The notes below the pieces were generated by a model. That model ran no database searches. It worked only from the letters and a program-made list of their open reading frames with translations, and was not told where the DNA came from. Source: Bacilli bacterium (GTDB lineage Bacteria > Bacillota_I > Bacilli_A > RFN20 > CAG-449). Taken from it: DNA of 64,000 bases. Location of the stretch: contig DBGCPK010000005.1 in assembly GCA_048359995.1 (NCBI GenBank), forward strand, positions 56,585-120,584, in the 5' to 3' direction. Below are positions 1,119-63,096 of the stretch, in pieces. Position 1 is the first letter of the stretch. Every line of letters begins with the position of its first letter. Made by a program: the position numbers and the translations under genes.

Positions 1119-1394
1119 AAGAGGGATGAGGAGACCCACACTGCATATGGATATGATTGTATTATTGAAAAAGAGTATTACGAAATTGTAAAAATATTTG
1201 AACAGGGTGAGGAGTATGTAGAAAAGCATTTGTCGCCACAAGAAGTTGTGGTCAAAATTCTAGGCGAATTTATTGGAGGGCTGAATTCCGAAATAAGAAG
1301 TTTCGAGATCGATCTGCTTCCGCTGGAAGAGCAAGCAAGTATATTGCGAGAGCAAGAACGTATGCAAAAAAAAATTAAATATAGGAATGCTTAA
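1119..1394 (+). pseudogene. Start-less 91-codon open frame, C-terminal fragment of an unknown protein (gene remnant)
   Basis: 91 sense codons with no ATG/GTG/TTG start near the 5' end and a TGA just upstream in frame. Its stop abuts the convergent recombinase stop. Confidence 0.3.
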
Positions 1395-2018
1395 CTATGT
1401 TGTTAGGCATCCCTTATTTTTTTCGCTTAAAATACGGTTCATATGATAATAAAAATTGCAACGTTTTAGTCCGGACAATTTGATGGCTTCAGCAATTGAT
1501 ATTTCTTTTTTGCTTACTTGATAAACAATTTTTATTAATTCATTTTCATAAATTCTTTTAGGGCGACCAAATTTCACCCCACGATTCTTTGCGGCAATAA
1601 TTCCTTCTTTTTGCCTTTGCCGGATGTTGTCGCGCTCGTTCTCTGCAACAAACGATAGAACTTGAAGAACAATATCCGATATAAATTTGCCAACGAGTGT
1701 ATTTGCTTTGGTGCGCGTATCCAAAAGCGGCATATCTAGTACTAAAATATCCGCTTTGATTTCGTTTGTAATATAACTCCATTCGTGAATAATGGAATCA
1801 TAGTTTCTGCCAAGACGATCTATTGACTTGATGATTAGCAAATCATCTTGTTTTAATGTCTGAAGTAATTTTTTATAATTCTCACGTTCAAAATCTTTAC
1901 CGCTTTTTTTGTCTGAAAAAATGAATTTAGGATCAATGCCATAAGCAGTAAAAGCATCAAGCTGTCTTGCTATATTTTGGTCGGTTGCGGATACTCGTGC
2001 ATAAGCATAAGTGGACAT
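1395..2018 (-). CDS. Small serine recombinase (resolvase/Hin-type DNA invertase family)
   Basis: N-terminal catalytic motif YARVSATDQ with the active-site Ser, and a C-terminal HTH. About 207 aa. AAGGAG RBS 6-8 nt upstream of the ATG at 2018. Confidence 0.9.
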   Translation of the reverse strand: MSTYAYARVSATDQNIARQLDAFTAYGIDPKFIFSDKKSGKDFERENYKKLLQTLKQDDLLIIKSIDRLGRNYDSIIHEWSYITNEIKADILVLDMPLLDTRTKANTLVGKFISDIVLQVLSFVAENERDNIRQRQKEGIIAAKNRGVKFGRPKRIYENELIKIVYQVSKKEISIAEAIKLSGLKRCNFYYHMNRILSEKNKGCLTT

Positions 2019-2111
2019 TTGATTTTTCTCCTTGATTATATAAGGATAGCACAAAAGGAAAATTCAAAAAACTAAAACATATGGTTATAGCGGCGCTTAC
2101 AATTAAAAAAA

Positions 2112-2128
2112 GTAGACTTTTTCTAACA
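2112..2128. repeat. Left inverted repeat (IRL) GTAGACTTTTTCTAACA of candidate invertible switch
   Basis: Perfect 17-bp reverse complement of 2206-2222. Confidence 0.85.
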
Positions 2129-2205
2129 GCATACTTATCGACGAATTAGTACAAAATTCGACATAATTGAGTATAGTATAAATTAATTTCTATTGCAAGT
2201 GTTTG

Positions 2206-2222
2206 TGTTAGAAAAAGTCTAC
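2206..2222. repeat. Right inverted repeat (IRR) TGTTAGAAAAAGTCTAC of candidate invertible switch
   Basis: Perfect 17-bp reverse complement of 2112-2128; the two copies are separated by 77 bp. Confidence 0.85.
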
Positions 2223-2392
2223 CTTTGCTAACAGGATAGTTAGTTCTTTTGATGAAGTTGTGGAGATTTGCTCGTAGCTTTGGGCTCGGCAAAAATTGCA
2301 ACGGACATAAATTATTATTGTAGTGCAGGATATTCCAGCATGAAAGGGCGAAGCATACCTTTTCGCTTAATTGTTGGTATCATGGAGGGGAT

Positions 2393-2968
2393 ATGGAAGA
2401 GCCATATTGGTGGTATGTATTGCATGTGCGCTCTAACAAAGAGCATCGTGTTGTGGAAAGTTTTCAGCAAGCCTTTAACCAAAAAGGACTTGCATACGAA
2501 TTATACACTTTTTGTCTTGAGTCAGAACACTTCTATAAAGACAAGCAATCCCAAACATTAGGGCGAAAATATATTAAAAGGCCATTATTTCCTGGATATG
2601 TTTTTATAGAAACTAATATGCCATCTAAAGAGTTCATAATGACCTTTTTTTATGTGTTTTATGATTCTGCTGATATAATCCGTCTTTTGCGATACGGAGA
2701 TTCGGATGAAATTGCATTAAAAAAAGAAGAGCGGCAACGTTTTGAATTCCTTTTTAAAGGAAAAAGGGCGATTGAACACTCTATTGGTTATATTGAAGGT
2801 GATAAAATCATTATCACAGGCGGAGGACTAATGGGGCTTGAAGGGTATATCCGAAAAATCAATCGACATAACCGCACTGCAGATGTAGAGATAAATATGT
2901 TTAATCAAAGACAAACTATAAAAGTTGCACTTGAAATTGTGTCAAAATCAGGCAATCAAAAAAAATAG
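2393..2968 (+). CDS. NusG paralog (LoaP/UpxY-like specialized transcription antiterminator), NGN + KOW
   Basis: WYVLHVRSNKEHRV and PLFPGYVFIE NGN-domain motifs, and a C-terminal KOW-like GDKIIITGGGLMGLEGYI. GGAGGGG RBS. It is the first gene of the long co-directional cluster. Confidence 0.8.
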   Translation: MEEPYWWYVLHVRSNKEHRVVESFQQAFNQKGLAYELYTFCLESEHFYKDKQSQTLGRKYIKRPLFPGYVFIETNMPSKEFIMTFFYVFYDSADIIRLLRYGDSDEIALKKEERQRFEFLFKGKRAIEHSIGYIEGDKIIITGGGLMGLEGYIRKINRHNRTADVEINMFNQRQTIKVALEIVSKSGNQKK

Positions 2969-3037
2969 TCTTAACAGATTATTTTTTTGCTTTCTTTATG
3001 TAACGAGCGTTCCAAATAGGATTTAAGTACTAATGAT

Positions 3038-3571
3038 ATGAAAGAAGAAATAATAAACGCAAATGAAACTACCTTAAAAATTATTTTTGGTTGCTTAGTT
3101 CGTAACGGAGTAGAAAATACTACAATGCGATCGATATGTAATGCGACAGGCTTGACCGCAAGCAGTTTATATTACCGATTTAAGGACAAGGATGAAATTA
3201 TTTTAGAGGCATCCTGTTATGGGCTTAATTCCGTAACAAAAGAATTGTTTTGGGTTGTAACTGAAAAAATTAATAACTTCCAAGTTTTAATTGCTTTTTT
3301 GAAAAATGTTGATACTAGGAAACAATCTATAAAGCTTATTTATCAAGTTTTAAGTAGCCCTAAGTATGGTGAAAAATTTAGAAAAATGACGCATTCAACA
3401 CCGATGGTAATATATAAGTATACTGGGATGTTGTCAGAGAAACTCAATTGCTCGACAGAAGATTGTTGCTATATGTCGGACTTACAATTGCCGTTATTCG
3501 TGAATATGCAATATGGGAAAACAGGGAAAGCACGAAGCGAAAACTTAAATTTATTTACGACAATTGCTTAG
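3038..3571 (+). CDS. TetR/AcrR-family transcriptional regulator
   Basis: N-terminal HTH TTMRSICNATGLTASSLYYRFKDKDEI, typical of TetR; 177 aa. Confidence 0.7.
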   Translation: MKEEIINANETTLKIIFGCLVRNGVENTTMRSICNATGLTASSLYYRFKDKDEIILEASCYGLNSVTKELFWVVTEKINNFQVLIAFLKNVDTRKQSIKLIYQVLSSPKYGEKFRKMTHSTPMVIYKYTGMLSEKLNCSTEDCCYMSDLQLPLFVNMQYGKTGKARSENLNLFTTIA

Positions 3572-3620
3572 CCGATTGCTGTAAAAATGAAATTAATGAT
3601 TAATTTGGAAGAAACAACAA

Positions 3621-4661
3621 ATGCTTACTGATTATTATTATAATGAATTGTCCGTCCCTGAACAGGGTGCGTATAATAGTATTAGATTTGCTTTAAACAA
3701 TTCAGAGACTGAATGCACTGTAACTGGAATTAGTTCTAGTGAATCTGCTACACTTGTTTGGAAAGCCGTTGTTTTTGATCATCCGGAAATTATTAATTAT
3801 CCTGGACTGTTTTGTCAGCCGGTAGGTAATGGTGAGAATTTTAGGTTCAGATTTCAATATTCCCAGATTGATAGATATGCTTATGAAGAAAAACTAAATC
3901 GGCTAATAAACAAAATTAACAATAAAATGTCTGCTAATGCGTCAGATTATGTTGCTTGCAAAACAATATTTGATGAGTTAGCATCTTTTATTAAATATGA
4001 AGAAAATGTTTTAGAAGAGTATTTGAACCTTGAGCAAGAGAATTCTTCAGAGACAATAGATTTTATGCGAGACCATAGTACTTCATTTTCTCCATACGGA
4101 ATTCTAATGAATTCTAAAGGAGTGTGCCAAGGAATAGCCAAACTTTTTAAAATTATTTGTGACAGATTTGGCGTTCAATGTGCGTGTGTTGAAGCTAAGA
4201 CATTAAATTGCGGAGCTAATTCGGCAAGCAATCACATGTTAAATGTTGTAGAAATAGATGGGGAACGTGCTTTTGTCGATATAGCAAATAGTTTAAAGAT
4301 TGAAAATCTACCCGTTATTAAATATGATTTTTTCCTTATGCCTCAGCGTATTATCAATAAGACCTTTACAATTATTGGTGAGTTTGGATGCCGTAATGAG
4401 TCATTAAACTATTTTGTTAAAAATAATCTCCGTTTTACATCAATAAATGATTTAAGACGTTATCTTTTATCATATACCTATCGCTCAACGAATGGCGAAG
4501 TAAGGTGCCATTACGATGGAAACAAATTTGATGATAAAAAATTGGAAGACTTATTTTTTTACAATATAAACTACCATTGTCAAGATGGGTATTATATGCA
4601 ATTTGCAAGTGTTAAGAACGGATTCTGTACCGGTCTTATTAAATCAGATTCGGAGGTTTAA
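3621..4661 (+). CDS. Transglutaminase-like cysteine protease superfamily protein
   Basis: Cys-His-Asp arrangement: GVCQGIAKLFKIICDRFGV (Cys), NHMLNVVEI (His), AFVDIA (Asp). Confidence 0.55.
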   Translation: MLTDYYYNELSVPEQGAYNSIRFALNNSETECTVTGISSSESATLVWKAVVFDHPEIINYPGLFCQPVGNGENFRFRFQYSQIDRYAYEEKLNRLINKINNKMSANASDYVACKTIFDELASFIKYEENVLEEYLNLEQENSSETIDFMRDHSTSFSPYGILMNSKGVCQGIAKLFKIICDRFGVQCACVEAKTLNCGANSASNHMLNVVEIDGERAFVDIANSLKIENLPVIKYDFFLMPQRIINKTFTIIGEFGCRNESLNYFVKNNLRFTSINDLRRYLLSYTYRSTNGEVRCHYDGNKFDDKKLEDLFFYNINYHCQDGYYMQFASVKNGFCTGLIKSDSEV

Positions 4662-4664
4662 ATT

Positions 4665-6908
4665 ATGGAAGAAAGCAAAAAAATGAAATGGCAAAAGGAT
4701 TTTGATACTTTTTTCCCGATCTATAACTCATTTATCTTTGAAGGGTTCATTGATGATGATCAGCCATATGAAGACGAAAATGGAGAAATTAAATATTGTA
4801 GGCTTTATGACTATTTTGATAAAGTCTACAGCAATCATACCGATCCAACAAAACGTAAACGTGTAATCATCTATGATCCTACAGAATCAGATGATAAACG
4901 GTTTAAGATTTGCGATGATGATTGTATGCAAGAAGAAGTTGTCGATGAATCAGCAGACAATTTTGATGGAAAACTGAAAAAAGTCATGAATTATATGTCA
5001 TCGCAAATGTCGCAACATTTTTGGGATATAGTACATGATGATGATTTGGACATGCTTTTAATAGATCATAAATCATCTGGTCCTTCGTTAGATTTTTCTC
5101 GTATCCATTACGCTGTTACAGAGGGTAGTGGCCGTATTGCTCCATTCGAAATTCTTGATAAATTTAGAGATATTTTTAATAACCTGTTTGGTAATCCGCA
5201 AAATGGTGAACCAAGTGGGTATTTGTTTGTAATTAAAATGACATCACGTCTTTTATCGCGTGATGGTGCGTCCAACGGCTTGAGCGGTGAAGAGTTAATG
5301 ATATTTAGACAGTTGCTTAACATTGCCCAAAGTCTCGATACTGAAAGCGATAACGCCACGCAGCAACATCAAAGTAATAAGATCATCATTCTTGCAAACC
5401 AAGTGCGGGATTTGCCTATGTGGTTTACAGATGAAATTGCAAATCCGTTTATCAAGCTTATCAATGTATCAAGACCTTCTGAAGAAAATAAACTTGATTA
5501 TTTTAATGAAATGCTTGATAGCGGTTGCTTTAGTCCGCAATTTGTAGCTCGCTATAATGAGATTGATAGTGCTAGTAAAGAAAAAGATGCGCAGGCTAAG
5601 CGTAATCCAGTTGAAAAGAAATTTTTGGCGTATACAAACGATTTTAGTATGAAAATGCTAAGACGTTATAGGGCGTTTATTTCTAATAATCCTATAGATG
5701 ATCCGGCTAAATTGGGCTTTTCAATATCCACGTTCCGTGCCGGTGATATGACAAATCCTTGGGATGACGAAGACCGCATAAAGGATATGCTTAATATCAA
5801 ACAAACGGTAAGCAAAAAAATACAAGGTCAAGATTTTGCTTTAGATACTGCGCAAGCCATTTTAACAAGAGCCGCAATTGGACTTGACCGTGCTGAAAAT
5901 CCTAATGCTCCGCGGGTTATCTTATTTCTTGCCGGTCCGACAGGTACAGGTAAGACTGAACTATGTAAACAAATTGCGGAAAGTATTTTTGGCAGTGAAG
6001 ATAGAATTGTAAGATTTGATATGTCCGAGTATGGACAGGAAGAATCAGATCAAAAGCTTTTTGGTGCGCCTCCAGGATATGTTGGTTATGAAGAAGGCGG
6101 AAAGTTAACAAATGCTGTTAAGAAAGAGCCTTTTTCTCTTATCCTTTTCGATGAAATAGAAAAGGCTCATAATTCTATTCTCGATAAGTTTTTACAAATT
6201 CTTGGTGATGGCAGATTAACCGATGGCAAAGGAGAAACTGTTAGATTCACTGATTGCATTATAGTTATCACTTCAAATGCCGGGGTATTCTCGTTTGACG
6301 GAATGCCGCAGGAAGAAATCGACAAACTCATGAATGGCGATACAAAACCTGAAGGCGAAATGAATATGGACAGAGTTGCCCAGCTTGAGGAAGAATTGGC
6401 TGACGCTAATGGCAATATTTCCGAGCAATCATACTCAGAAATTTACGCAAAAGTAAAAGAACATTTAAGATACAATGTAAAGTCTTATTTCCATTGTAAA
6501 TTGAAGAGACCTGAGTTATACGGTCGTATTGAAGATTCTATAGTTTATTACAATTACATAGGAAAAGAATCAGTTGCAAAAATTGTTAAATCCAAAATTT
6601 CCGACGTAATTAAATCTACAAAAGAATCAATGAATGTTAACGATATTATATGCTCTGACGAAGTAAAAGCGGCAATTGCTCTCTATTGCCAAGATTGCAA
6701 AGTAAGAGCCTTAGGTGCGCGTGGTATTATCAAGAGTACCGGTAAATTATTCACTGGTAGCTTATCTAATTTCCTTTCTGATTATGTTCGTGGAGAGAAC
6801 GGAAAAAGTAAGGGCGATTTATCAGGAAAAACTTTAAAATGCACGTGCAACGAAATAATTTCATCGGCCTATGATATAGTTTGGAGTATCAATGATTGTA
6901 GTATTTGA
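4665..6908 (+). CDS. AAA+ ATPase with ClpA/ClpB D2-type domain (C-terminal) and unknown N-terminal region of about 400 aa
   Basis: LAGPTGTGKTELCK Walker A, a GAPPGYVGYEEGG sensor motif, Walker B LILFDEIEKAH, and LQILGDGRLTDGKGETVRFTDCIIVITSN. All are hallmarks of the Clp/Hsp100 D2 module. Confidence 0.8.
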   Translation: MEESKKMKWQKDFDTFFPIYNSFIFEGFIDDDQPYEDENGEIKYCRLYDYFDKVYSNHTDPTKRKRVIIYDPTESDDKRFKICDDDCMQEEVVDESADNFDGKLKKVMNYMSSQMSQHFWDIVHDDDLDMLLIDHKSSGPSLDFSRIHYAVTEGSGRIAPFEILDKFRDIFNNLFGNPQNGEPSGYLFVIKMTSRLLSRDGASNGLSGEELMIFRQLLNIAQSLDTESDNATQQHQSNKIIILANQVRDLPMWFTDEIANPFIKLINVSRPSEENKLDYFNEMLDSGCFSPQFVARYNEIDSASKEKDAQAKRNPVEKKFLAYTNDFSMKMLRRYRAFISNNPIDDPAKLGFSISTFRAGDMTNPWDDEDRIKDMLNIKQTVSKKIQGQDFALDTAQAILTRAAIGLDRAENPNAPRVILFLAGPTGTGKTELCKQIAESIFGSEDRIVRFDMSEYGQEESDQKLFGAPPGYVGYEEGGKLTNAVKKEPFSLILFDEIEKAHNSILDKFLQILGDGRLTDGKGETVRFTDCIIVITSNAGVFSFDGMPQEEIDKLMNGDTKPEGEMNMDRVAQLEEELADANGNISEQSYSEIYAKVKEHLRYNVKSYFHCKLKRPELYGRIEDSIVYYNYIGKESVAKIVKSKISDVIKSTKESMNVNDIICSDEVKAAIALYCQDCKVRALGARGIIKSTGKLFTGSLSNFLSDYVRGENGKSKGDLSGKTLKCTCNEIISSAYDIVWSINDCSI

Positions 6909-26047: not shown

Positions 26048-26706
26048 AAAATATAGCATCTATACTGATTTAATACTTGCTAAAGCAAATCAGTAAAGAA
26101 ACAAATTAATTTATGCAAGTTGTGCAATGATAATATCTTTAATTGTTATTTGCTGTTTGATAGTAACAAGGGTAACGATATGATCAACGGTATAAGCATT
26201 TTGATTGTATGTCGAGGAAGAATAGTTCTTCTTTATACTGCAAAATCTTTGCAGCTTGAACAATTTTATTCAATAATACTGAAAGATTTTTAATTTTCGT
26301 CAGGTGACAACTTAAATTCAGTTAAAAAAAGAAAAACGAAGAAAAGACAAAGTAAGTTCCGAAAAAAGAGACAGGGAGTTGCTATTTTCATGACAAAGTA
26401 AGTTCAGCCAGTAAAAGAATTCAATGAAACTATTGATAAAAAACAGAAATTACCTTAATATGAAGATGCTTAAAGATAGCAAAAAGACAAAGAAAAAAGA
26501 ACTCACGGAATATCGTTGCCAAACTCAATTCCGTAAATTGATGGGTATATATTTTTGTTAATTTGTCCTTGCCATATGCATCTTTAAGTTTTTTTATTCT
26601 TTATATTTTCTAATAAGTGATTTGGTTAGATGAATACCATCAAATGGATTTTTTTTTGATATTAGGAGAGTCAAGTATTTCACTTCCAAAGATAAATTCA
26701 AAGATT

Positions 26707-27535
26707 TCATATTGCAGGAAATATTTTTTTAAAATTATCAATTCCAATTCTATCTTGAATGAAATTAAATGCTGAAACAATCGTTGAAGCTTCTTTATTA
26801 AGAACTAAGATACCAATCATAAAATTTGAAAAAGGAAATAGAAGAGTCATTAGATATTGTGAATCATTGGTTTTACCAATAACTAAATCAAGTTGAGGAA
26901 TATATACTTGACGATTTTCTGCAAGAAATTTTAAATAGTCTTCATACATTCTTCCATCTCTGATTGCTTGTAATTCTTTTCTTTCTTTGTCTTTGTACTT
27001 GTAAGCTTTTCTTGGCTTCATTTTTACTTTATTTCGTAAATCATGATCTTTTATTTGAAGATATCTATTTGTTACATAATGGTAAACAGTTCTTTCGGAT
27101 ACACCTATCTCAGGATGATTGATCATAGTAGTAATGATGAATCCGACAAGAACCAGTCTTTTGACAACCATTGCATACATAAGGGAATCTAGTTAAACGA
27201 GAACAAGTCTTGATAACAAAATCTTACAAATGAGAGTAAGATCTTTCGTAATACATTTTCTACATTCATATGCACATAATGTTGAACAGACTTTCGTTTT
27301 CTTACATTCCTTTACTTTTGAACAAATACAACAATATGGACGAATATAATCACCGCGTTTTACTTGTTTTACATAACGATGCTTCCGAATTTCTTTGGAG
27401 AATGAAGTAGGATCTTTTCCAATCTTCCTCGCAATTTCATTTTATTTTGTTCCTTTTTTGATTTCAATTAAGATAGTATCTCTTTGATCGAGAGTCATAT
27501 GTGTTCCTTTTGCCATTCTTTTCCTTCCTTTCTTT
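26707..27535 (-). mobile_element. IS30-family transposase gene remnant (in-frame stops, 3'-truncated)
   Basis: Reverse-strand translation gives an IS30-like HTH (IARKIGKDPTSFSKEIRKHRY, cf. IA..L.RSPSTISREIQRN). It also gives the catalytic-core region DLVIGKTNDSQYLMTLL (cf. GHWEGDLVSGTKNSHIATLV). The reading frame is broken by stop codons and ends before the final third of the DDE domain. Confidence 0.55.
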
Positions 27536-28012
27536 TTGGCGAGGTCCATCTTCATTATACTATTGTCACACTAAATTTCACTTTTCCTTTTTTAAACTGA
27601 TTTTATGTTGGCACTTATCGGATTTTTAATTTTTATAAAAATTGTTCATCAGTTAATGCTTTGAAAATGACGAAAAGATATTGAGCATTCTTGCAAAAAA
27701 AGGGGATTGCCAAACTTTGGGTATATAAAGAAGTTGAAAATATCTGTTCGTTACTCTATTTTGCGGGTTCAACATTCTTATTATATAAATCTTTTACAGA
27801 TAACGAAAAGGCGGAAGAGCGGAGAATCAATGTGTTGTCGTTTTTCATGATAAATAAGTTATTTCACAGAAAAAAAGTTTAATTTTTTCTTTTTAACTCT
27901 GGTTTTTTACGGGAAAACGCGTCGATCAACCGGCAGTTGATTCGTTCAATTTTAATTATTTTGCTTTTTTTGCATAACTGCACTTATACTAAAAGCGAGG
28001 AGGTTGTTGAAA

Positions 28013-41917: not shown

Positions 41918-43939
41918 ATGCTGGAAAAGTTTTCAAGTGGGGCGCAGAGAATTATATCTCTTGCCGAAGCCTTAGCGTTTGAATTCAATCACCCGACGGT
42001 CGGCAGCGAACATCTTCTTCTCAGCTTTTTGAAATGCAAAGATAACCTCCTGACCAAAGAATTGAGCAAATACAATATCGACTATCTAAACCTGAGAGAT
42101 AAAGTGAAAAATCTTTATCAAGGTTCGGACGATACCAATATTTACGTTCAATATACGTTTGAACTGAAAGAACTTCTGGCAGATTCGCTGAAAATCAGCG
42201 AAAAAAACAAAGAATCGCTGATCAGTTCCGATTCGCTGGCTTTGGCTATCCTGTCCAACAAAAACATCGCGCAGGAACTTTTAGCGAAGGAAGGAGTCAA
42301 TATCAACGCAATGTTAAAAGCCATCAACAATTCGAGAAAACGAAAGTCGGAACTGAATACGATCGCCGATCTCCACCTTTCCGGTGCCGATCATCGCGAT
42401 CCTCTCATCGGAAGAGAAAAAGAACTGAGACAGTTAATCAATGCTTTGAGCAGAAGAAACAAACCCAACGCGATTCTGTTAGGAGAACCGGGCGTGGGGA
42501 AAAGCGCGATCGTCGAAGAACTTGCCAGACAACTTTTGGCCAATAAAGTGCCGTCTTTAAAGGGGAAATCAATCTATGAACTCGATATTGCTTCGACGGT
42601 TTCCGGAACGAAATATCGCGGAGAATTCGAGGAGAAAATCAAAAAAATCATTCGCAAAGTGCAGGAGGACGGAAACGCTATTCTGTTCATCGACGAAATT
42701 CACACGATCGTCAAGGCGGGAGGCGCGGAAGGAGCAATCGATGCGTCCAACATATTAAAACCCTACCTGTCGCGAGGAGAGATTCAGGTTATCGGCGCGA
42801 CGACAGAAGAAGAATTCAACGCCACGTTTGAAAACGACAAGGCTTTGAAACGCAGATTTCAGATTATCCGCGTAGAAGAAACCACACCGGAGGAAACGCT
42901 GGATATCCTCCTTAAAACCAAGCCCATTTACGAGAAGTTTTACTCTATCAAAATCGACGATTATCTGCTGAAAGAAATCGTCGATGTGGCGAAAAAGTAT
43001 CTGTTGAATCAAAAATTTCCGGATAAAGCCATCGATATTCTGGACAATTCTTGCGTAGAAGCCAAAGGACATCTGACTTTGGAGAATATTTACAACACGT
43101 TGGAGAACTATTACAAGGTGGCGACCAATTATCATAAACAGGAAACGCTGAAACGTGAACTGAGCGAAAACCTGATCGGTCAGGACGAAGCGATCGAAGC
43201 GATTGTTGACGAGTTCAGAATGATTGAATTATCGCTGGAAGAAAGGGACGCGCCTTTGGGAGTTTTCCTGTTTAACGGCCCTTCCGGATGCGGAAAAACC
43301 CTTTGTGCGAAGATCATTTCCAAATGTTACTTCTCTTCTCGTCATACATTGACGTTGAATATGAACACTTATCGCGATCTCAACGGGTTAAATCGCCTGA
43401 TCAACGCTTCTTCTTCCAATTATCTCGAAAGCGTTTCTCCTTTCATAAAATGTTTGAACAATTGTCCGAATTCGTTAATTGTCATCGACGATTTCGACAA
43501 AGCGACAAACGACATCAAAGAATTCTTTTTCGACATTTTCGATAAAGGTCGCTTTTACGACAATCGGGGAAATCTGATCAATTGCAGCAATGCAGTATTC
43601 ATTCTCAATACTTCATACGTCCCCGGCGATTATTTGGATTTTAAGAATTATCTGTCGAAAACTCAAAACGAGAATAAAAACGAAATCGTGCGAAAACTCG
43701 GTAGCAGTTTTGTTTCGCGACTTACCCGCATCGTCGAATTCCGAAGCCTGAATCCGGAAACCATCAAGACGATTATGAGACAATACGCCGACAATCATCA
43801 TTTGCAATATGAGGCCGGTTTCATCGAAGAAGCGTTCCGTTTGAGCGATCTGAAAGAGTACGAAAAAACCGGTGCGAGATTGGCGTATAAGAATATGAAA
43901 AGCAAACTGATCGAAAGAGAAAAGATCAACAATAAATAG
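41918..43939 (+). CDS. Clp/Hsp100-family AAA+ ATPase (ClpC/ClpE-like, shortened and divergent)
   Basis: Clp_N repeats. D1 Walker A GEPGVGKSAI. D2 Walker A GPSGCGKT. Walker B reads VIDDFDK (DD rather than DE). 673 aa. Confidence 0.75.
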   Translation: MLEKFSSGAQRIISLAEALAFEFNHPTVGSEHLLLSFLKCKDNLLTKELSKYNIDYLNLRDKVKNLYQGSDDTNIYVQYTFELKELLADSLKISEKNKESLISSDSLALAILSNKNIAQELLAKEGVNINAMLKAINNSRKRKSELNTIADLHLSGADHRDPLIGREKELRQLINALSRRNKPNAILLGEPGVGKSAIVEELARQLLANKVPSLKGKSIYELDIASTVSGTKYRGEFEEKIKKIIRKVQEDGNAILFIDEIHTIVKAGGAEGAIDASNILKPYLSRGEIQVIGATTEEEFNATFENDKALKRRFQIIRVEETTPEETLDILLKTKPIYEKFYSIKIDDYLLKEIVDVAKKYLLNQKFPDKAIDILDNSCVEAKGHLTLENIYNTLENYYKVATNYHKQETLKRELSENLIGQDEAIEAIVDEFRMIELSLEERDAPLGVFLFNGPSGCGKTLCAKIISKCYFSSRHTLTLNMNTYRDLNGLNRLINASSSNYLESVSPFIKCLNNCPNSLIVIDDFDKATNDIKEFFFDIFDKGRFYDNRGNLINCSNAVFILNTSYVPGDYLDFKNYLSKTQNENKNEIVRKLGSSFVSRLTRIVEFRSLNPETIKTIMRQYADNHHLQYEAGFIEEAFRLSDLKEYEKTGARLAYKNMKSKLIEREKINNK

Positions 43940-44064: not shown

Positions 44065-45312
44065 TTATCGATTTCTGCGAATTTTGATCGGTCTTCCGTT
44101 TTTCAAACGCGATTTTTCCGCGGAAAAGCCGATATAATGACTTTCCAACGATTCTTCGAGAGTGGTATATCCGTCCGATTCGTCATTTTGAATCATATCG
44201 TAAAATCGATCGATCATCCGCGTCTCACCTCCGCCGTGACCGACAGAAGTGTCACCGAGTGAAGAAAGACGATAGTTGATTTTTTCGCGATCAAAAGGCA
44301 TGACTTCGATCGTATCTTTCTCTTCGGAAAAAGCGATGTTACCGTAAGTTCCGTAAAAGTTCATATTTCGTCCCCATCCGGAAGTAAAAGCCATCATTTT
44401 CAGGTCGGCGCGGATTCCGTTTTGAAATTGCAGATGAACGATTTGGTGATCGACGACGTTGTTATCGCAAGCGAATACGCATCGACCGTAAGGACCTTTT
44501 TTCAATGCCTCTGAAACGTTTTGATCGGTGACCGGACGAAGATCGGTAACCATATTCCGCCCCCAAAATCGATTTCGGATATAGATGTTCTCGGCACTAT
44601 AAGGGCAAGTCGAGTTATGCGGACAGTCGCAGCAGCGATCCGTCGCATCTTTCGGTTGGTTTTCCTTTTTGAAAAAAGACAGAGAACCGAAAGAAGAAAC
44701 GCTTTCGCATTTGGAATGCGCAAACCATTGAAATAAATCAAGATCGTGGCAACATTTAGCCAAAATCATCGGCGCGGCCTGACGATCATTCCGCCAATTT
44801 CCGCGAACGTAAGAATGCGCATAATGGAGATATTGCACTTGTTCGGTGCCTTCAAAAAAGACAAGATCGCCGATAATTCGGCTTTCAATCAGTTCTTTGA
44901 GTTTGACAAAAGCGGGCGCGTAACGGAGAACGTGACAGACGACGACTTTTTTTCGGTAGATTCTCGCGGCTCTGTCCAGTCGAAGACAATCACTTTCGCT
45001 GACCGCTATCGGTTTTTCCATCAATATGTCGTAACCGAGTTTAAGCCCTTTGATCGCATGATTAACATGATCCTTATCTTGTGTCGAAACGATCAGCACA
45101 TCACTTCTCTTTTGTCGGAAAAAATCTTCTTCTTTTTCGAAAACTTCGTCTTCTCGAATCTGAAATTCTTTCTGCGCATTTTTCCTTCTTTCTTTTATTC
45201 GATCGCAGATGGCGACGACGCTATATCGATCCGGTCTGTCTTTCATTAAACCGGCATAAAGAAACCCTCTTGCACCCATGCCGATGACCGAAACCGTTAA
45301 AATTTTTTTCAT
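44065..45312 (-). CDS. Gfo/Idh/MocA-family NAD(P)-dependent oxidoreductase
   Basis: N-terminal Rossmann motif VSVIGMGARG, and EKP in LMEKPIAV. Confidence 0.8.
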   Translation of the reverse strand: MKKILTVSVIGMGARGFLYAGLMKDRPDRYSVVAICDRIKERRKNAQKEFQIREDEVFEKEEDFFRQKRSDVLIVSTQDKDHVNHAIKGLKLGYDILMEKPIAVSESDCLRLDRAARIYRKKVVVCHVLRYAPAFVKLKELIESRIIGDLVFFEGTEQVQYLHYAHSYVRGNWRNDRQAAPMILAKCCHDLDLFQWFAHSKCESVSSFGSLSFFKKENQPKDATDRCCDCPHNSTCPYSAENIYIRNRFWGRNMVTDLRPVTDQNVSEALKKGPYGRCVFACDNNVVDHQIVHLQFQNGIRADLKMMAFTSGWGRNMNFYGTYGNIAFSEEKDTIEVMPFDREKINYRLSSLGDTSVGHGGGETRMIDRFYDMIQNDESDGYTTLEESLESHYIGFSAEKSRLKNGRPIKIRRNR

Positions 45313-60656: not shown

Positions 60657-61355
60657 TTAGTCGGAAATCCGAATGTGATGCTGTCGGATAAAGATGAAAT
60701 CGCCGTCTTCTATTTGCAGGAAGTCATACGCGTAGCGATCGTATTCGACGTCTTTTCTTAGCGCGGCCAAACACTCCATTGTCGAGTAGCAAAGGCTTTT
60801 GATTTCCTCTGAACTTTGATTGCTTCTTTCCGCGAAAATGTCCAGTTTTTCGTATAAATCCTCTTCTTTTTCGATTGAAAAAGTCAGGTAATAGTAACTC
60901 GGCCCATAGTATTTCGAACCATAATAATATCCCGAGTAATACTCTTCCGTCATGCAGATGGTCAGATTTTTCTGCTCGGTTTCGGTATAATCTTTCGTGC
61001 ATTCGATCTGAAAGTCCTCTTCTTCGAAACGAATCGGCTGATCGAAGTAGTACGAAATCTCTCTTTCCTCTTCGAAAGTAAAACGGTATTCGTTTCCGAC
61101 GGAAAATTCTCTTTCCGAAGCGATACTCAGAAGAAATCGCGGACAAATAAAGATCTGTTCTTTTCCGCTTTGTTTGTAAAATACTCCGGAAAATTCCTTG
61201 AACGTTCTTTGTTGCAAACCCAAAAGCGTTTCGTTGATTCCTGAGTTCGGTTCTTCGGAAAGAGACGAATTGTCGGATAAACCGGTAGAGGAACGGCAGG
61301 AACTTGCCGTCAGAAGGTAGAGCAGAAATAAAAGGGATTTCAAGTGTTTACGCAT
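60657..61355 (-). CDS. Lipoprotein, hypothetical
   Basis: MRKHLKSLLFLLYLLTASSC signal plus lipobox. A longer ORF upstream is unlikely. Confidence 0.6.
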   Translation of the reverse strand: MRKHLKSLLFLLYLLTASSCRSSTGLSDNSSLSEEPNSGINETLLGLQQRTFKEFSGVFYKQSGKEQIFICPRFLLSIASEREFSVGNEYRFTFEEEREISYYFDQPIRFEEEDFQIECTKDYTETEQKNLTICMTEEYYSGYYYGSKYYGPSYYYLTFSIEKEEDLYEKLDIFAERSNQSSEEIKSLCYSTMECLAALRKDVEYDRYAYDFLQIEDGDFIFIRQHHIRISD

Positions 61356-62802
61356 AGGCGACCTCCTTATACAAATTGACGATAAAATGATTGATTGTGT
61401 ATGCATTCGCCGAGATGAAACGATTTCCGGAATGTACCGAGTTGCTAATAATTCCAATCAAATAGCAGTTCGTTGTGGGTACTCCGTTAATAACGGACGT
61501 GGTTTGATGAAAAATTGGTCCACCGCTATTCCCTTCACTAATGACGAGGTCATCAGAACGAATATATTTTTTTGAAAATTCGTCGACCAATTCCAGTGAA
61601 TGATAAAGGGGATAATTAGTCCATAGAGAATTGTTTACAAATCTTCCGTCTTCGTTTTTTAATGATGGAAAACCAGCAGATTGTGCCATAGTAAAATTTG
61701 CATTATCAAAATGAGCTATACCCATATATGAATGAACTTTTATATCGCTCATTGTTTGCTTTGCAATTGATATCGACCAATCGTAAATTGCCGAAACAGA
61801 TTTTCCCGATTGAGTATCAGAACGATAGATCACAAAGGAAATAGGTAAATATGTTTTTTGAACTTCATAATTGCCGCAAAAATAATGATTTGGAGGCATA
61901 TATCCAGGTTTAAAATTAACGTTACATGTCAATGTACTTAAAGTTCTACCGGAATATTTTCTTTCATTGAAAAAAAGATGTGCGCTGGATAAAATAACAT
62001 TTTCACTTACAAACGTACCTGTTCCTCCGGTAGATAGTGAAGATTGAACAGCGCCATCGTATTTTAAATCACCGCTCATTTTAGCGATTGAACTATAATA
62101 ACTATAAGTTGGATCGCTGACTAACCGTCGATTATCATTTTCAATTCCAAAAGTATAATTAGTTTCTTCAAGTAAAGAATTGTAAACAACAGAACTTCCG
62201 TTAGAAACAACTTTACTCTCCGTTAAAACTGAAGAAGATGATGAGATGTCAAAGGATTGTATGGTATAATGATAACCTAAACTTGAATCCGAGTCTTTGC
62301 TTTGACATAAAATATATTTTTCGTGATTTGATAAATTTGTTAATGTACATTTCTTTATTTCAAGACTAAAAGAATTTTGATTTTGAGCGGTATTTGTTAT
62401 TTCAAAAATATAATCAGTGTTAGCATCTAGGTAAAACAAATTCAGATCTGCGTTTGCGTTGTTGATACGGGTTAAATAATTTTTGTCGGAAATTAAATTT
62501 TTATAGAAAAGTCGGATTGTTGCATTGGAGCCTGAATAATTCAAACGACAAATCTGTGATTCTAATGATGAAAAAGCAAAGTATTTAGTCTCATTTTTCG
62601 AGAGAAAATCTGCTTTTATTTTTTTATTCAATTCAAGGGTTTGCTCAACGGAAACGGATACTTCCGAGTCTAAAACTTCTTCGACCAGTTTTTTTTCCGT
62701 AATTGAGGAGCAAAAATTTTCCGCCTTCGATAAAACCTTTATTGTAGAAAAATTTTCTGGGATACAAAGAGAAATAAATAGAAATAAAGGAAATCTTTTC
62801 AT
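61348..62802 (-). CDS. Secreted trypsin-like serine protease (S1B, glutamyl-endopeptidase-like)
   Basis: Signal peptide; catalytic-triad context ILSSAHLF (His), DWSISIA (Asp) and GNSGGPIF (Ser). Confidence 0.7.
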   Translation of the reverse strand: MKRFPLFLFISLCIPENFSTIKVLSKAENFCSSITEKKLVEEVLDSEVSVSVEQTLELNKKIKADFLSKNETKYFAFSSLESQICRLNYSGSNATIRLFYKNLISDKNYLTRINNANADLNLFYLDANTDYIFEITNTAQNQNSFSLEIKKCTLTNLSNHEKYILCQSKDSDSSLGYHYTIQSFDISSSSSVLTESKVVSNGSSVVYNSLLEETNYTFGIENDNRRLVSDPTYSYYSSIAKMSGDLKYDGAVQSSLSTGGTGTFVSENVILSSAHLFFNERKYSGRTLSTLTCNVNFKPGYMPPNHYFCGNYEVQKTYLPISFVIYRSDTQSGKSVSAIYDWSISIAKQTMSDIKVHSYMGIAHFDNANFTMAQSAGFPSLKNEDGRFVNNSLWTNYPLYHSLELVDEFSKKYIRSDDLVISEGNSGGPIFHQTTSVINGVPTTNCYLIGIISNSVHSGNRFISANAYTINHFIVNLYKEVAYA

Positions 62803-63096
62803 CGACTAATCATCTCCATAATATATTAAACTAAATTAATTATATGCGATAAAAAATTATTTTACAAGACAATAGCTGCGTTTTGCATTTATTGGCAATT
62901 TGCCTCGAATCGACCGAAATGCGAAAGAGAATCGTATTTTTTATGCGGCTTGAAATCGAGAATTATTTTTTTTAAAAATAACGAGGGATATTTAAAATTT
63001 TTTCAAGGGATACATTAAAATTAATGAAAGAAAAAAACGGACTTTTGTTGTAACGTAAAATTGTGAAAGCGGTTACTTAACCAAAAGGAGATTTTT

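Follow-up and report, generated by a model that had tools for sequence, protein, structure and literature searches.

We analyzed a 64,000-nucleotide stretch of DNA from a Bacilli bacterium (GTDB lineage Bacteria; Bacillota_I; Bacilli_A; RFN20; CAG-449; NCBI GenBank assembly GCA_048359995.1, contig DBGCPK010000005.1, positions 56,585 to 120,584 of the forward strand), referred to below as the window and numbered from its first letter. In it, a short segment separates the gene of a small serine recombinase from loaP, which encodes a NusG paralog and stands first in a long operon. We hold with good confidence that this segment is a two-site serine-recombinase invertible promoter (inverton) that gates the LoaP-led 23.6-kb operon. 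A first-pass annotation of the window had proposed an invertible promoter beside a serine recombinase and phase-variable expression of the operon, and this proposal gains support from relatives with identical flanks in which both orientations of the segment are found.

Related loci carry the segment in both orientations

The evidence on orientation consists of assembled contigs, mostly of different samples. Loci of the window type were found on dozens of contigs from other samples, with recombinases 94–96% identical, and these contigs keep the layout of recombinase, loaP, TetR, peptidase, and AAA genes. Within this lineage, the promoter points toward the recombinase, as in the window, in seven samples and toward loaP in six. 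The first orientation is seen in loci L009, L010, L012, L014, L019, and L039, and the second in L011, L013, L015, L016, L017 (same contig as L044), and L018. L039 and L044 come from two contigs of one assembly (WFLX01); their flanks of 181 and 505 nt align with 0 mismatches, and 103 nt are exactly reverse-complemented. Over 3,060 nt, the differences between L016 and L019, and between L009 and L011 or L015, are likewise confined to the segment.

Two sub-lineages, of the P0002 and the P0003 type, each contain both orientations, and assemblies from Logan, ENA, and NCBI are concordant. At L014 and eight similar places, the contig ends within the switch, which probably reflects how an assembly graph behaves where the sample is heterogeneous. 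The alignments indicate that the inversion is precise, reciprocal, and recurrent in two sub-lineages. The first-pass annotation had named a single orientation in deep read data or populations, together with a lack of promoter activity, as the result that would speak against it; the assembled relatives show both, including on two contigs of one assembly.

L013 differs in another respect. Its switch is ON-oriented, and loaP breaks off after ~62 codons at ~2420–2430 of that locus (homologous to window ~2580). Beyond the break lies unrelated DNA with Glug- and Metallophos-type genes, and the contig represents either a rearranged variant or a chimera.

Predicted crossover sites at the ends of the segment

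The two arms of the inverted repeat, at 2112–2128 (GTAGACTTTTTCTAACA) and 2206–2222, are exact reverse complements over 17 nt and are separated by a 77-nt spacer, as the first-pass annotation had described. With mismatches allowed, the repeat reaches 26 nt at 88% complementarity (2103–2128 and 2206–2231). It is the sole perfect inverted repeat of at least 14 nt with a spacer of at most 300 nt in the 64-kb window. By chance, a mean of 0.05 comparable 17-mer pairs per 64 kb is expected (first-order Markov simulation with the composition of the low-GC island described below).

A natural marker narrows down where the strands are exchanged. In relatives, a single mismatch distinguishes the arms of the repeat (G/T, at the position homologous to window 2122 and 2212), and it switches sides with orientation. 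The outer half-sites and the sequence beyond the repeat keep their place in both orientations. The exchange must therefore take place within 2112–2121 on the left and 2213–2222 on the right, inside GTAGACTTTT. Each of these intervals contains the center of a 12-2-12 dyad. The recombinase-proximal crossover site (2102–2127) reads ATTAAAAAAAGT-AG-ACTTTTTCTAAC, with its core AG at 2114–2115, and the loaP-proximal site (2207–2232) reads GTTAGAAAAAGT-CT-ACCTTTGCTAAC, with its core CT at 2219–2220. Between the two cores lies the invertible segment of 103 nt (2116–2218). Sites of 12-2-12 form with a non-palindromic 2-bp core are the classical crossover architecture of serine recombinases, as in hix. 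The window thus holds two 26-bp sites with a non-palindromic core in inverted orientation, as in Hin/Gin-type systems, and cleavage probably occurs at the 2-bp cores. The repeat reported by the first-pass annotation stands, and its flipping unit of 77 bp has to be enlarged to ~103–105 bp, since the exchange cores sit in the outer part of the repeat.

The dyad pattern is matched at 2102–2127 and 2207–2232 only, with 0 matches in 100 shuffles, and the same scan of the 64-kb window yielded no further partner sites for the switch. The loaP-proximal site is a good 12-2-12 dyad in every lineage that has loaP as the first cargo gene. In all lineages in which the cores were located, the cores of the two sites are mutually reverse-complementary, and the core pairs covary by lineage: AG/CT in the window type and P0006; GA/TC in P0022, L045, and L046; and GT/AC in P0019, P0036, and P0068. 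In two lineages, the perfect repeat coincides exactly with the core and the 12-nt inner half-site. A variable position in the inner half-site is altered jointly on both arms in P0006 (C/G) and in P0019 and P0022 (A/T). Core-to-core spacing is 104–106 bp, about ten helical turns, in all lineages with placed cores (placed partly by hand).

A metagenome scan with the switch pattern gave 14 matches, 4 of them in the family (L039, L044, L045, and L046) and 10 of them unrelated long perfect palindromes. Perfect palindromes of 94–113 nt ending ACTTTTTCTAAC...GTTAGAAAAAGT were seen on AT-rich metagenome contigs (L035–L038, L041, L042, L047, and L048) and are unrelated to the switch. The viral contigs scanned with this pattern gave no match. 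An Rfam search of 1300–3700 returned sub-threshold chance matches only, among which mir-2797 (E 0.098) reflects the hairpin shape of the inverted repeat.

The conserved content of the segment resembles a promoter

The segment carries a promoter on the minus strand at 2170–2198, with TTGCAA at 2198–2193, a 17-nt spacer, and TATACT at 2175–2170. It reads toward the recombinase gene, and both its elements and its direction agree with the first-pass annotation. In this AT-rich region, matches to 9 of 12 consensus positions are not above chance (7 found vs 6.8 expected), so the hexamers alone prove nothing and the case for a promoter rests on conservation across relatives. The −35 TTGC is invariant, and the inner half-sites are conserved, in 8 of 8 aligned lineages, whose recombinases are 65–100% identical. 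An extended −10 (TGnTAnAAT) is kept in 7 of 7 relatives, and the rest of the segment has diverged. Judged by this pattern, what the segment conserves is a promoter of the sigma-70 type.

In the window orientation, transcription is predicted to start near 2163, and the recombinase ATG is at 2018. Inversion would, by arithmetic, place the hexamers on the plus strand at 2136–2141 and 2159–2164 and give a leader of ~222 nt. A weak plus-strand promoter-like match lies within the segment at 2138–2167, and no plus-strand promoter match was found between the switch and loaP.

No terminator-like structure separates the recombinase gene from the switch in window-type, P0006, and P0019 loci. The OFF state would be expected to raise recombinase expression in window-type loci. 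In lineages lacking a terminator, the promoter points mostly at the cargo (17 of 17 contigs across four lineages; 6 of 13 samples for the window type), and in the two lineages that have one, it points at the recombinase (12 of 12 contigs). These orientation counts fit an OFF-state boost of recombinase expression loosely and represent few, non-independent lineages; we put the boost forward as a hypothesis only.

In the P0068 lineage, the stretch from the switch to the recombinase gene contains a strong intrinsic terminator (GGCGCGG..CCGCGCU and then U6; L053:2430–2465). The terminator scan missed its interrupted stem, which was revealed by direct folding. This structure would block recombinase expression from the flipped promoter. 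The terminator of P0036 is weaker (L049:2420–2450).

A second, fixed source of recombinase transcription may exist. A candidate extended −10 promoter, TGCTATCCT, lies on the minus strand at 2043–2051, ~25 nt upstream of the start codon. By eye, a TGYTATCCT-like element is present at the same place in the window type, P0006, P0019, P0022, and P0036; in P0068, it is degenerate (TGTTATTCT). This element may serve as the basal promoter of the recombinase gene.

Some P0068-type loci (L054, L055, L058, and L060, at ~2150–2400) contain an extra segment of ~106 nt that brings in a further strong promoter (TTGACA, 17-nt spacer, TGCTACAAT). These loci have three sites in a row. The middle core, AT, is palindromic and fits neither of the outer cores (GT/AC), so the two promoters may flip only together.

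Recombinase and switch recur together before different cargoes

The gene at 1395–2018 (minus strand) encodes a small serine recombinase of 207 amino acids, the presumed invertase (PF00239, E 1.7e-26; 93.5 bits against a cutoff of 23.3). Its catalytic residues Y6, R8, S10, D67-R68, R71, E128-R129, and G151-R-P153 are invariant over eight lineages (65–100% identity). The closest solved relatives are Sin/Bin3 (E 1.9e-30), followed by the gamma-delta and Tn3 resolvases and then Gin (2.7e-13), and plasmid homologs ~50% identical to it are annotated as res-type. Against the Mpi model NF009949 it scores 44.8 bits, where the cutoff is 272. The first-pass annotation was thus right in calling a serine recombinase, and its Hin/resolvase-type label does not extend to orthology with Hin or Mpi: Sin/Bin3 is nearest, and the Mpi cutoff is missed by a wide margin. 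Past the GRP linker, the protein continues for about 50 residues, and the alignment with Gin runs to residue 183; no Pfam helix-turn-helix model rises above noise. No enhancer-like element for the recombinase was recognized.

All eight recombinase clusters retrieved (P0001, P0002, P0003, P0006, P0019, P0022, P0036, and P0068) are accompanied by a switch of the same design, as are the recombinases of L045 and L046 from the metagenome scan. The switch is always directly upstream of the recombinase gene, divergent from it and at a constant distance, whatever the cargo. The cargoes comprise two kinds of loaP operon, a lipoprotein with a Glug-domain protein, an LRR_5 lipoprotein, and a Big_2 lipoprotein. 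Conversely, four LoaP loci that lack this recombinase (L005–L008) have no switch. The half-site sequence drifts in step with recombinase divergence, from GTTAGnAAAAGT to GTAGTAAAAGT. We call the adjacent recombinase the invertase on the grounds of this co-occurrence; the case is strong but circumstantial.

In three of the loci examined (L020:2650–3000, L049:2150–2500, and L053:2150–2500), the cassette, with recombinases 65–72% identical, stands before single surface lipoprotein genes with Glug, LRR_5, or Big_2 domains. To judge from its distribution, the pair of recombinase and switch behaves as a portable cassette in Clostridial lineages.

The switch precedes a conserved loaP leader

The first gene of the operon, at 2393–2968 on the plus strand, passes the model for antiterminator LoaP (NF033641 antiterm_LoaP, 132.5 bits; cutoff, 125) and falls below the cutoffs for UpxY (NF033644, 47.3 vs 100), RfaH (27 vs 144), and housekeeping NusG (63.6 vs 135.7). 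The first-pass annotation had described a NusG-like gene and drawn a parallel with Mpi/UpxY; the product is indeed a NusG paralog, of the LoaP rather than the UpxY type.

Between the switch and loaP lies a leader of 170 nt that is strongly conserved. It contains a two-tier stem-loop on the plus strand (2257–2302; outer stem GUUGUGG/UUGCAAC, inner stem UUGC..GCAA). LoaP is known to require a small hairpin in the leader RNA and a NusA-dependent leader terminator (PMC12691694), and by analogy this stem-loop is a candidate LoaP-binding RNA. A UNCG tetraloop like that of the same study was not recognized in the loaP leader. Downstream, a small covarying hairpin (2323–2341, plus strand) shows compensatory changes in its stem: UGCAGGA/UUCCAGCA in the window type, GCAAG/CUUGC in L029, and CGCAA/UUGCG in L028. 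It lies directly upstream of an ops-like element, GGGCGAAGCATAC (2346–2358, plus strand), a near-invariant sequence with a GCGAAGC mini-hairpin on the non-template strand. This element overlaps a weak terminator-like hairpin with a U-rich tail (2346–2368, plus strand), which could be the leader terminator that LoaP overrides, if the precedent in PMC12691694 applies. Across the four leader helices (2257–2368), 94.7% of sequence/pair cells are paired, vs at most 45% with slid partners, and 10 pairs are changed on both sides, which 0 of 500 shuffles reach. The set comprises eight sequences from few lineages, and we regard the covariation as good, though not decisive, support for the predicted helices.

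The ops-like motif occurs once in the window, with the loaP ATG ~37 nt downstream. At 2348–2357, GCGAAGCATA is identical over 10 nt to the PSE ops of B. fragilis (CTGCGAAGCATA), and GCGAAGCA agrees with GCGNAGCR, the core of the Bacteroides consensus YGCGNAGCR, whose leading Y is G here. In Bacteroides, this consensus forms a hairpin on the non-template strand, and the start codon of UpxY follows ops at +41/+42 (PMC11685472). At the sequence level only, then, the leader has a GCG-N-AGC motif preceded by a hairpin, as ops/opsX elements are in class-1 UpxY leaders. GGGCGAAGCATAC, the best-conserved block of the leader, is kept in seven aligned switch-linked leaders (with one A/C position) and is not present in the switch-less locus L006. 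We also observed GGGCGAAGCATAC before loaP in the switch-less Merdibacter loci L007 and L008 (~5940–5990). These findings suggest that a DNA hairpin of the ops type serves LoaP-family paralogs of Clostridia and Erysipelotrichia in the way it serves UpxY and RfaH.

Upstream of the same leader, L006 has a fixed promoter at the position of the switch. By this comparison, the switch stands before an ordinary LoaP leader, at the position that the fixed promoter occupies in switch-less relatives. A 13-nt exact direct repeat, AAAAATTGCAACG, was noticed at 1451–1463 (3' end of the recombinase gene) and 2291–2303 (3' side of the stem-loop); it may be due to chance.

The operon carries a rare set of cargo genes

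From loaP to 26047, 18 genes run in the same direction with gaps of −17 to +69 nt, and this close spacing fits a single 23.6-kb transcript. The second gene (3038–3571, plus strand) encodes a TetR-family regulator (PF00440, E 8e-9) that occupies the same position in relatives. The remaining sixteen genes (3621–26047, plus strand; gaps of −17 to +49 nt) are the cargo. Recognizable products are a transglutaminase-like peptidase, a ClpB/ClpV-like AAA+ protein with one D2-type module, an NrdG-like radical-SAM activase, a DUF2225 protein, a surface protein with Listeria-Bacteroides repeats (two membrane-anchored surface proteins are encoded in the cargo), and a VirD4/TraD/HerA-like ATPase that also matches PADLOC mad8 at 1e-14. 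A GTPase-like protein of 669 amino acids has G1, G3, and G4 motifs. The family of an 826-amino-acid membrane protein numbers 17 clusters among 5.8 billion proteins, and its N-terminal domain weakly resembles GTPase regulators of the longin/roadblock/DENN kind. Ten of the 16 cargo proteins had no match in Pfam, NCBIfam, PADLOC, PHROGs, PDB sequence searches, or plasmid tblastn.

The whole 16-gene set is syntenic in L063 (1–22300) at 46% identity. A six-gene core is kept in L061 and L062 at 29–44% identity (L061:4369–15418) and consists of the 177-amino-acid, 589-amino-acid, GTPase-like 669-amino-acid, 826-amino-acid membrane, 317-amino-acid, and repeat surface proteins. There, the core is headed by a TIR-Sel1 protein, not by the peptidase/AAA pair, and comes without loaP, recombinase, or switch. 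A conserved core with exchangeable head modules, TIR among them, is typical of conflict and defense systems. By this analogy, our best guess, held with low confidence, is that the cargo is a conflict or defense system.

Two other identities were considered and set aside. One was a conjugation (type IV secretion) module: the VirD4/TraD-like ATPase is there, but VirB4, relaxase, and VirB6 families are missing. The polysaccharide or polyketide clusters typical of LoaP are likewise not represented, as no polyketide synthase, nonribosomal peptide synthetase, or glycosyltransferase family is found among the 16 cargo proteins; the link of LoaP to such clusters is an association and not a strict criterion.

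Proposed mechanism and alternative explanations

In the proposed mechanism, dimers of the adjacent recombinase would bind both 26-bp sites and synapse. Cuts at the 2-bp cores (AG at 2114–2115 and CT at 2219–2220) would then allow the segment to be rotated by 180 degrees. In the orientation of the window, the promoter would point away from the operon and into the recombinase gene, which no terminator shields; the operon would be OFF and recombinase expression perhaps raised. In the flipped state, transcription would yield the ~222-nt leader with its stem-loop, hairpin, ops-like GCGAAGCATA, and weak terminator before reaching loaP. LoaP would then render RNA polymerase resistant to termination over the remaining 17 genes.

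Several observations weigh against this mechanism. The window's own sample shows one orientation only, in two independent assemblies; both are identical to the window and are therefore uninformative on flipping. A single orientation is also seen in P0006, P0019, P0022, and L045/L046 (always toward the cargo) and in P0036 and P0068 (always toward the recombinase). The outer half-site on the recombinase side is A-rich and degenerate. The −10 of the window is TATACT and has lost the TG of its relatives, so the promoter may be somewhat weaker in this copy. Chance-level promoter-like matches within the operon are possible sources of basal expression, and catalysis by the adjacent recombinase is argued from co-occurrence only.

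These points leave room for other explanations. The inversion may be real and yet be catalyzed by a trans-acting recombinase encoded elsewhere, with the adjacent enzyme acting, for example, as the resolvase of a mobile element. Such a role would suit an enzyme whose nearest relatives are Sin and the gamma-delta and Tn3 resolvases, whose ~50%-identical plasmid homologs are res-type, and which in related elements is found beside conjugative-element genes such as that for DUF3854; moreover, most Clostridial invertons published so far are associated with tyrosine recombinases (PMC11892184). We nevertheless consider this explanation unlikely. In all lineages examined, recombinase and switch are found together, divergently arranged and constantly spaced, with at least four unrelated kinds of cargo, and the half-sites change as the recombinase diverges (GTTAGnAAAAGT to GTAGTAAAAGT). 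The 12-2-12 dyad with a non-palindromic 2-bp core is serine-recombinase architecture, and no tyrosine recombinase is consistently nearby. It is also improbable that the segment flips with little effect on the operon, other promoters being dominant and the main output being recombinase control or something else. Plus-strand matches do occur inside the operon (e.g., at 3648 and 4300), in addition to the weak one in the segment at 2138–2167. However, those within the operon are at chance frequency (80 found vs 82.9 expected) and none lies on the plus strand between the switch and loaP; the switch-less L006 has its fixed promoter, with the same leader, where the switch would be, and in other lineages only 25–40 nt separate the switch from the ribosome-binding site that serves a single lipoprotein gene.

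Whether anything flips at present is a separate matter. The two orientations could be old, fixed differences between strains, or artefacts of assembly, with no ongoing phase variation, and the reliance on contigs of mostly different samples and the single-orientation lineages would be compatible with that. We think this very unlikely, given that both orientations occur with identical flanks in one assembly and within both the P0002 and P0003 types. An artefact is further opposed by the agreement of Logan, ENA, and NCBI assemblies and by the contigs that break inside the switch (L014 and eight similar places). In addition, the repeat of 10–17 nt is shorter than the assumed assembly k-mers (typically at least 21), so an inverted path needs supporting reads. 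That the inverted repeat is a static palindrome (a TetR operator, a transcription terminator, or a miniature inverted-repeat transposable element [MITE]) and nothing moves is scarcely credible: the nearby TetR gene and the hairpin-type Rfam match (mir-2797, E 0.098, spurious) would fit it, but it is contradicted by two orientations at the same position with identical flanks, and the arms stand 77 nt apart and enclose a conserved promoter. The MITE or transposon-end variant was rejected on the grounds that no target-site duplication was seen in the flanks, that the position is constant across lineages, and that the mismatch swaps sides.

Beyond the inverton itself, a wider reading can be offered tentatively, and taken as a whole we consider it rather doubtful. 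The recombinase gene and the 105-bp promoter segment would form a self-contained, portable, Clostridia-specific flip cassette. This cassette would need no enhancer and would operate over a loop of exactly ten helical turns, and read-through would feed back on its own recombinase where an insulating terminator is missing. In the window, the switch would gate an orphan system built around the GTPase-like protein and the membrane protein with a longin/roadblock-like domain, and the swappable head module (TIR-Sel1 in the distant relative) suggests a new phase-variable defense or conflict system. If this is true, the combination of a structured RNA with an ops nearly identical to that of Bacteroides UpxY would imply a shared or convergent logic in the recruitment of NusG paralogs across phyla.

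The switch lies in a low-GC island

The recombinase and loaP are part of a low-GC island that extends from ~1127 to ~27,900 (about 35% vs 45% GC). Homology to a larger element in relatives begins at 1127, inside a 142-amino-acid open reading frame of theirs. In those relatives, the element continues with DUF3854 and other conjugative-element-like genes, and the copy in the window looks like a truncated remnant of a mobile element. The right end of the island (26050–27900; DNA of 27–31% GC) holds a fragment of an IS30-family transposase on the minus strand (26707–27180).

Outside the island, a 19-nt inverted repeat of 95% complementarity is present at 43426–43444 and 44689–44707, with arms 1,244 nt apart. 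A second low-GC patch (61000–63000; 30–37% GC) contains a 484-amino-acid open reading frame on the minus strand (61348–62802) and a 13-nt perfect inverted repeat at 61108 and 61253. This patch may be another acquired element.

Implications of a compact promoter switch in Clostridia

The combination of a serine-recombinase invertible promoter with antitermination by a NusG paralog was previously the signature of capsule regulation in Bacteroides. The same three-layer logic (a flip switch, a leader with hairpin and ops, and a NusG paralog as the first gene) is now seen in Clostridia with non-orthologous parts. The family of compact Clostridial cassettes is apparently undescribed. Each comprises a ~0.6-kb gene and ~130 bp of DNA, and the cassette recurs before surface lipoproteins in many gut metagenomes; the family may contribute widely to surface heterogeneity among gut Clostridia. 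With small, defined sites at a fixed spacing of 104–106 bp, it would be a tractable model for enhancer-independent inversion by serine recombinases, and the switch is a candidate part for genetic engineering in Firmicutes. Its presence also marks a rare, unannotated 16-gene system as important enough for phase-variable control.

Comparison with known systems

The nearest solved and annotated relatives of the recombinase are Sin, Bin3, and beta from plasmids and transposons of Firmicutes. These enzymes act at res/six sites with accessory subsites and mainly resolve cointegrates or multimers; here, by contrast, two simple inverted sites surround a promoter, and no accessory subsite was recognized. 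The beta recombinase inverts as well as resolves with the help of a DNA-bending protein, a plausible route on a very short loop. With Hin/hix-fljBA of Salmonella and with Gin, Cin, and Pin, the window shares a small serine recombinase and 26-bp inverted sites of 12-2-12 form, and a promoter is flipped. The differences are that the Hin/Gin segments measure ~1–3 kb instead of ~105 bp, that the recombinase gene is outside the segment here, that no Fis-type enhancer is evident and there is no obvious room for one, and that the enzyme is nearer to Sin than to Gin. A segment of ~105 bp is small relative to those of biochemically characterized serine invertases.

Short invertible promoters that turn surface structures ON or OFF are also known from E. 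coli fimS (FimB/FimE) and from the RecV switches of C. difficile, which differ in that they rely on tyrosine recombinases and that their segments are larger (~314 bp for fimS; ~150–200 bp for the C. difficile switches). In the fim system, expression of the recombinase depends on the orientation of the switch, a parallel to the read-through proposed here. In a large survey, the Clostridia-enriched, inverton-linked invertases were tyrosine-type recombinases (PMC11892184). Most catalogued invertons measure less than 300 nt (PMC11602134), so a size of ~105 bp alone is not exceptional among them.

The operon side of the locus is best compared with LoaP of Bacillus velezensis and the leaders of its dfn and mln operons (PMC12691694). 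The common features are a protein that passes the LoaP model, a structured leader RNA, a weak terminator-like hairpin, and a long operon. In the window, however, no UNCG-tetraloop hairpin was recognized, the leader has an ops-like DNA motif either in place of one or in addition to one, and the cargo does not form a polyketide or polysaccharide cluster. Within the library searched by full text, no paper connected LoaP with an invertible promoter, and no published LoaP operon had one.

The capsule loci of B. fragilis combine most of these elements. They have an invertible promoter under a serine recombinase and a leader with a hairpin and a GCG-N-AGC ops (GCGAAGCATA here equals the PSE ops over 10 nt; PMC11685472), followed by a NusG paralog that comes first and starts ~37–42 nt after ops, a small regulator that comes second, and a long operon. 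The two systems differ in phylum (Bacteroidota vs Bacillota here) and in the type of NusG paralog (UpxY vs LoaP here). Mpi of B. fragilis acts globally, whereas the recombinase of the window is far below the Mpi cutoff and is encoded beside its single switch; the second gene is UpxZ and the cargo polysaccharide in B. fragilis, and here they are TetR-like and non-polysaccharide. The likeness to Hin/fljB and Mpi/UpxY that the first-pass annotation had seen in the layout therefore holds for the design, which appears to be realized here with parts that are not orthologous.

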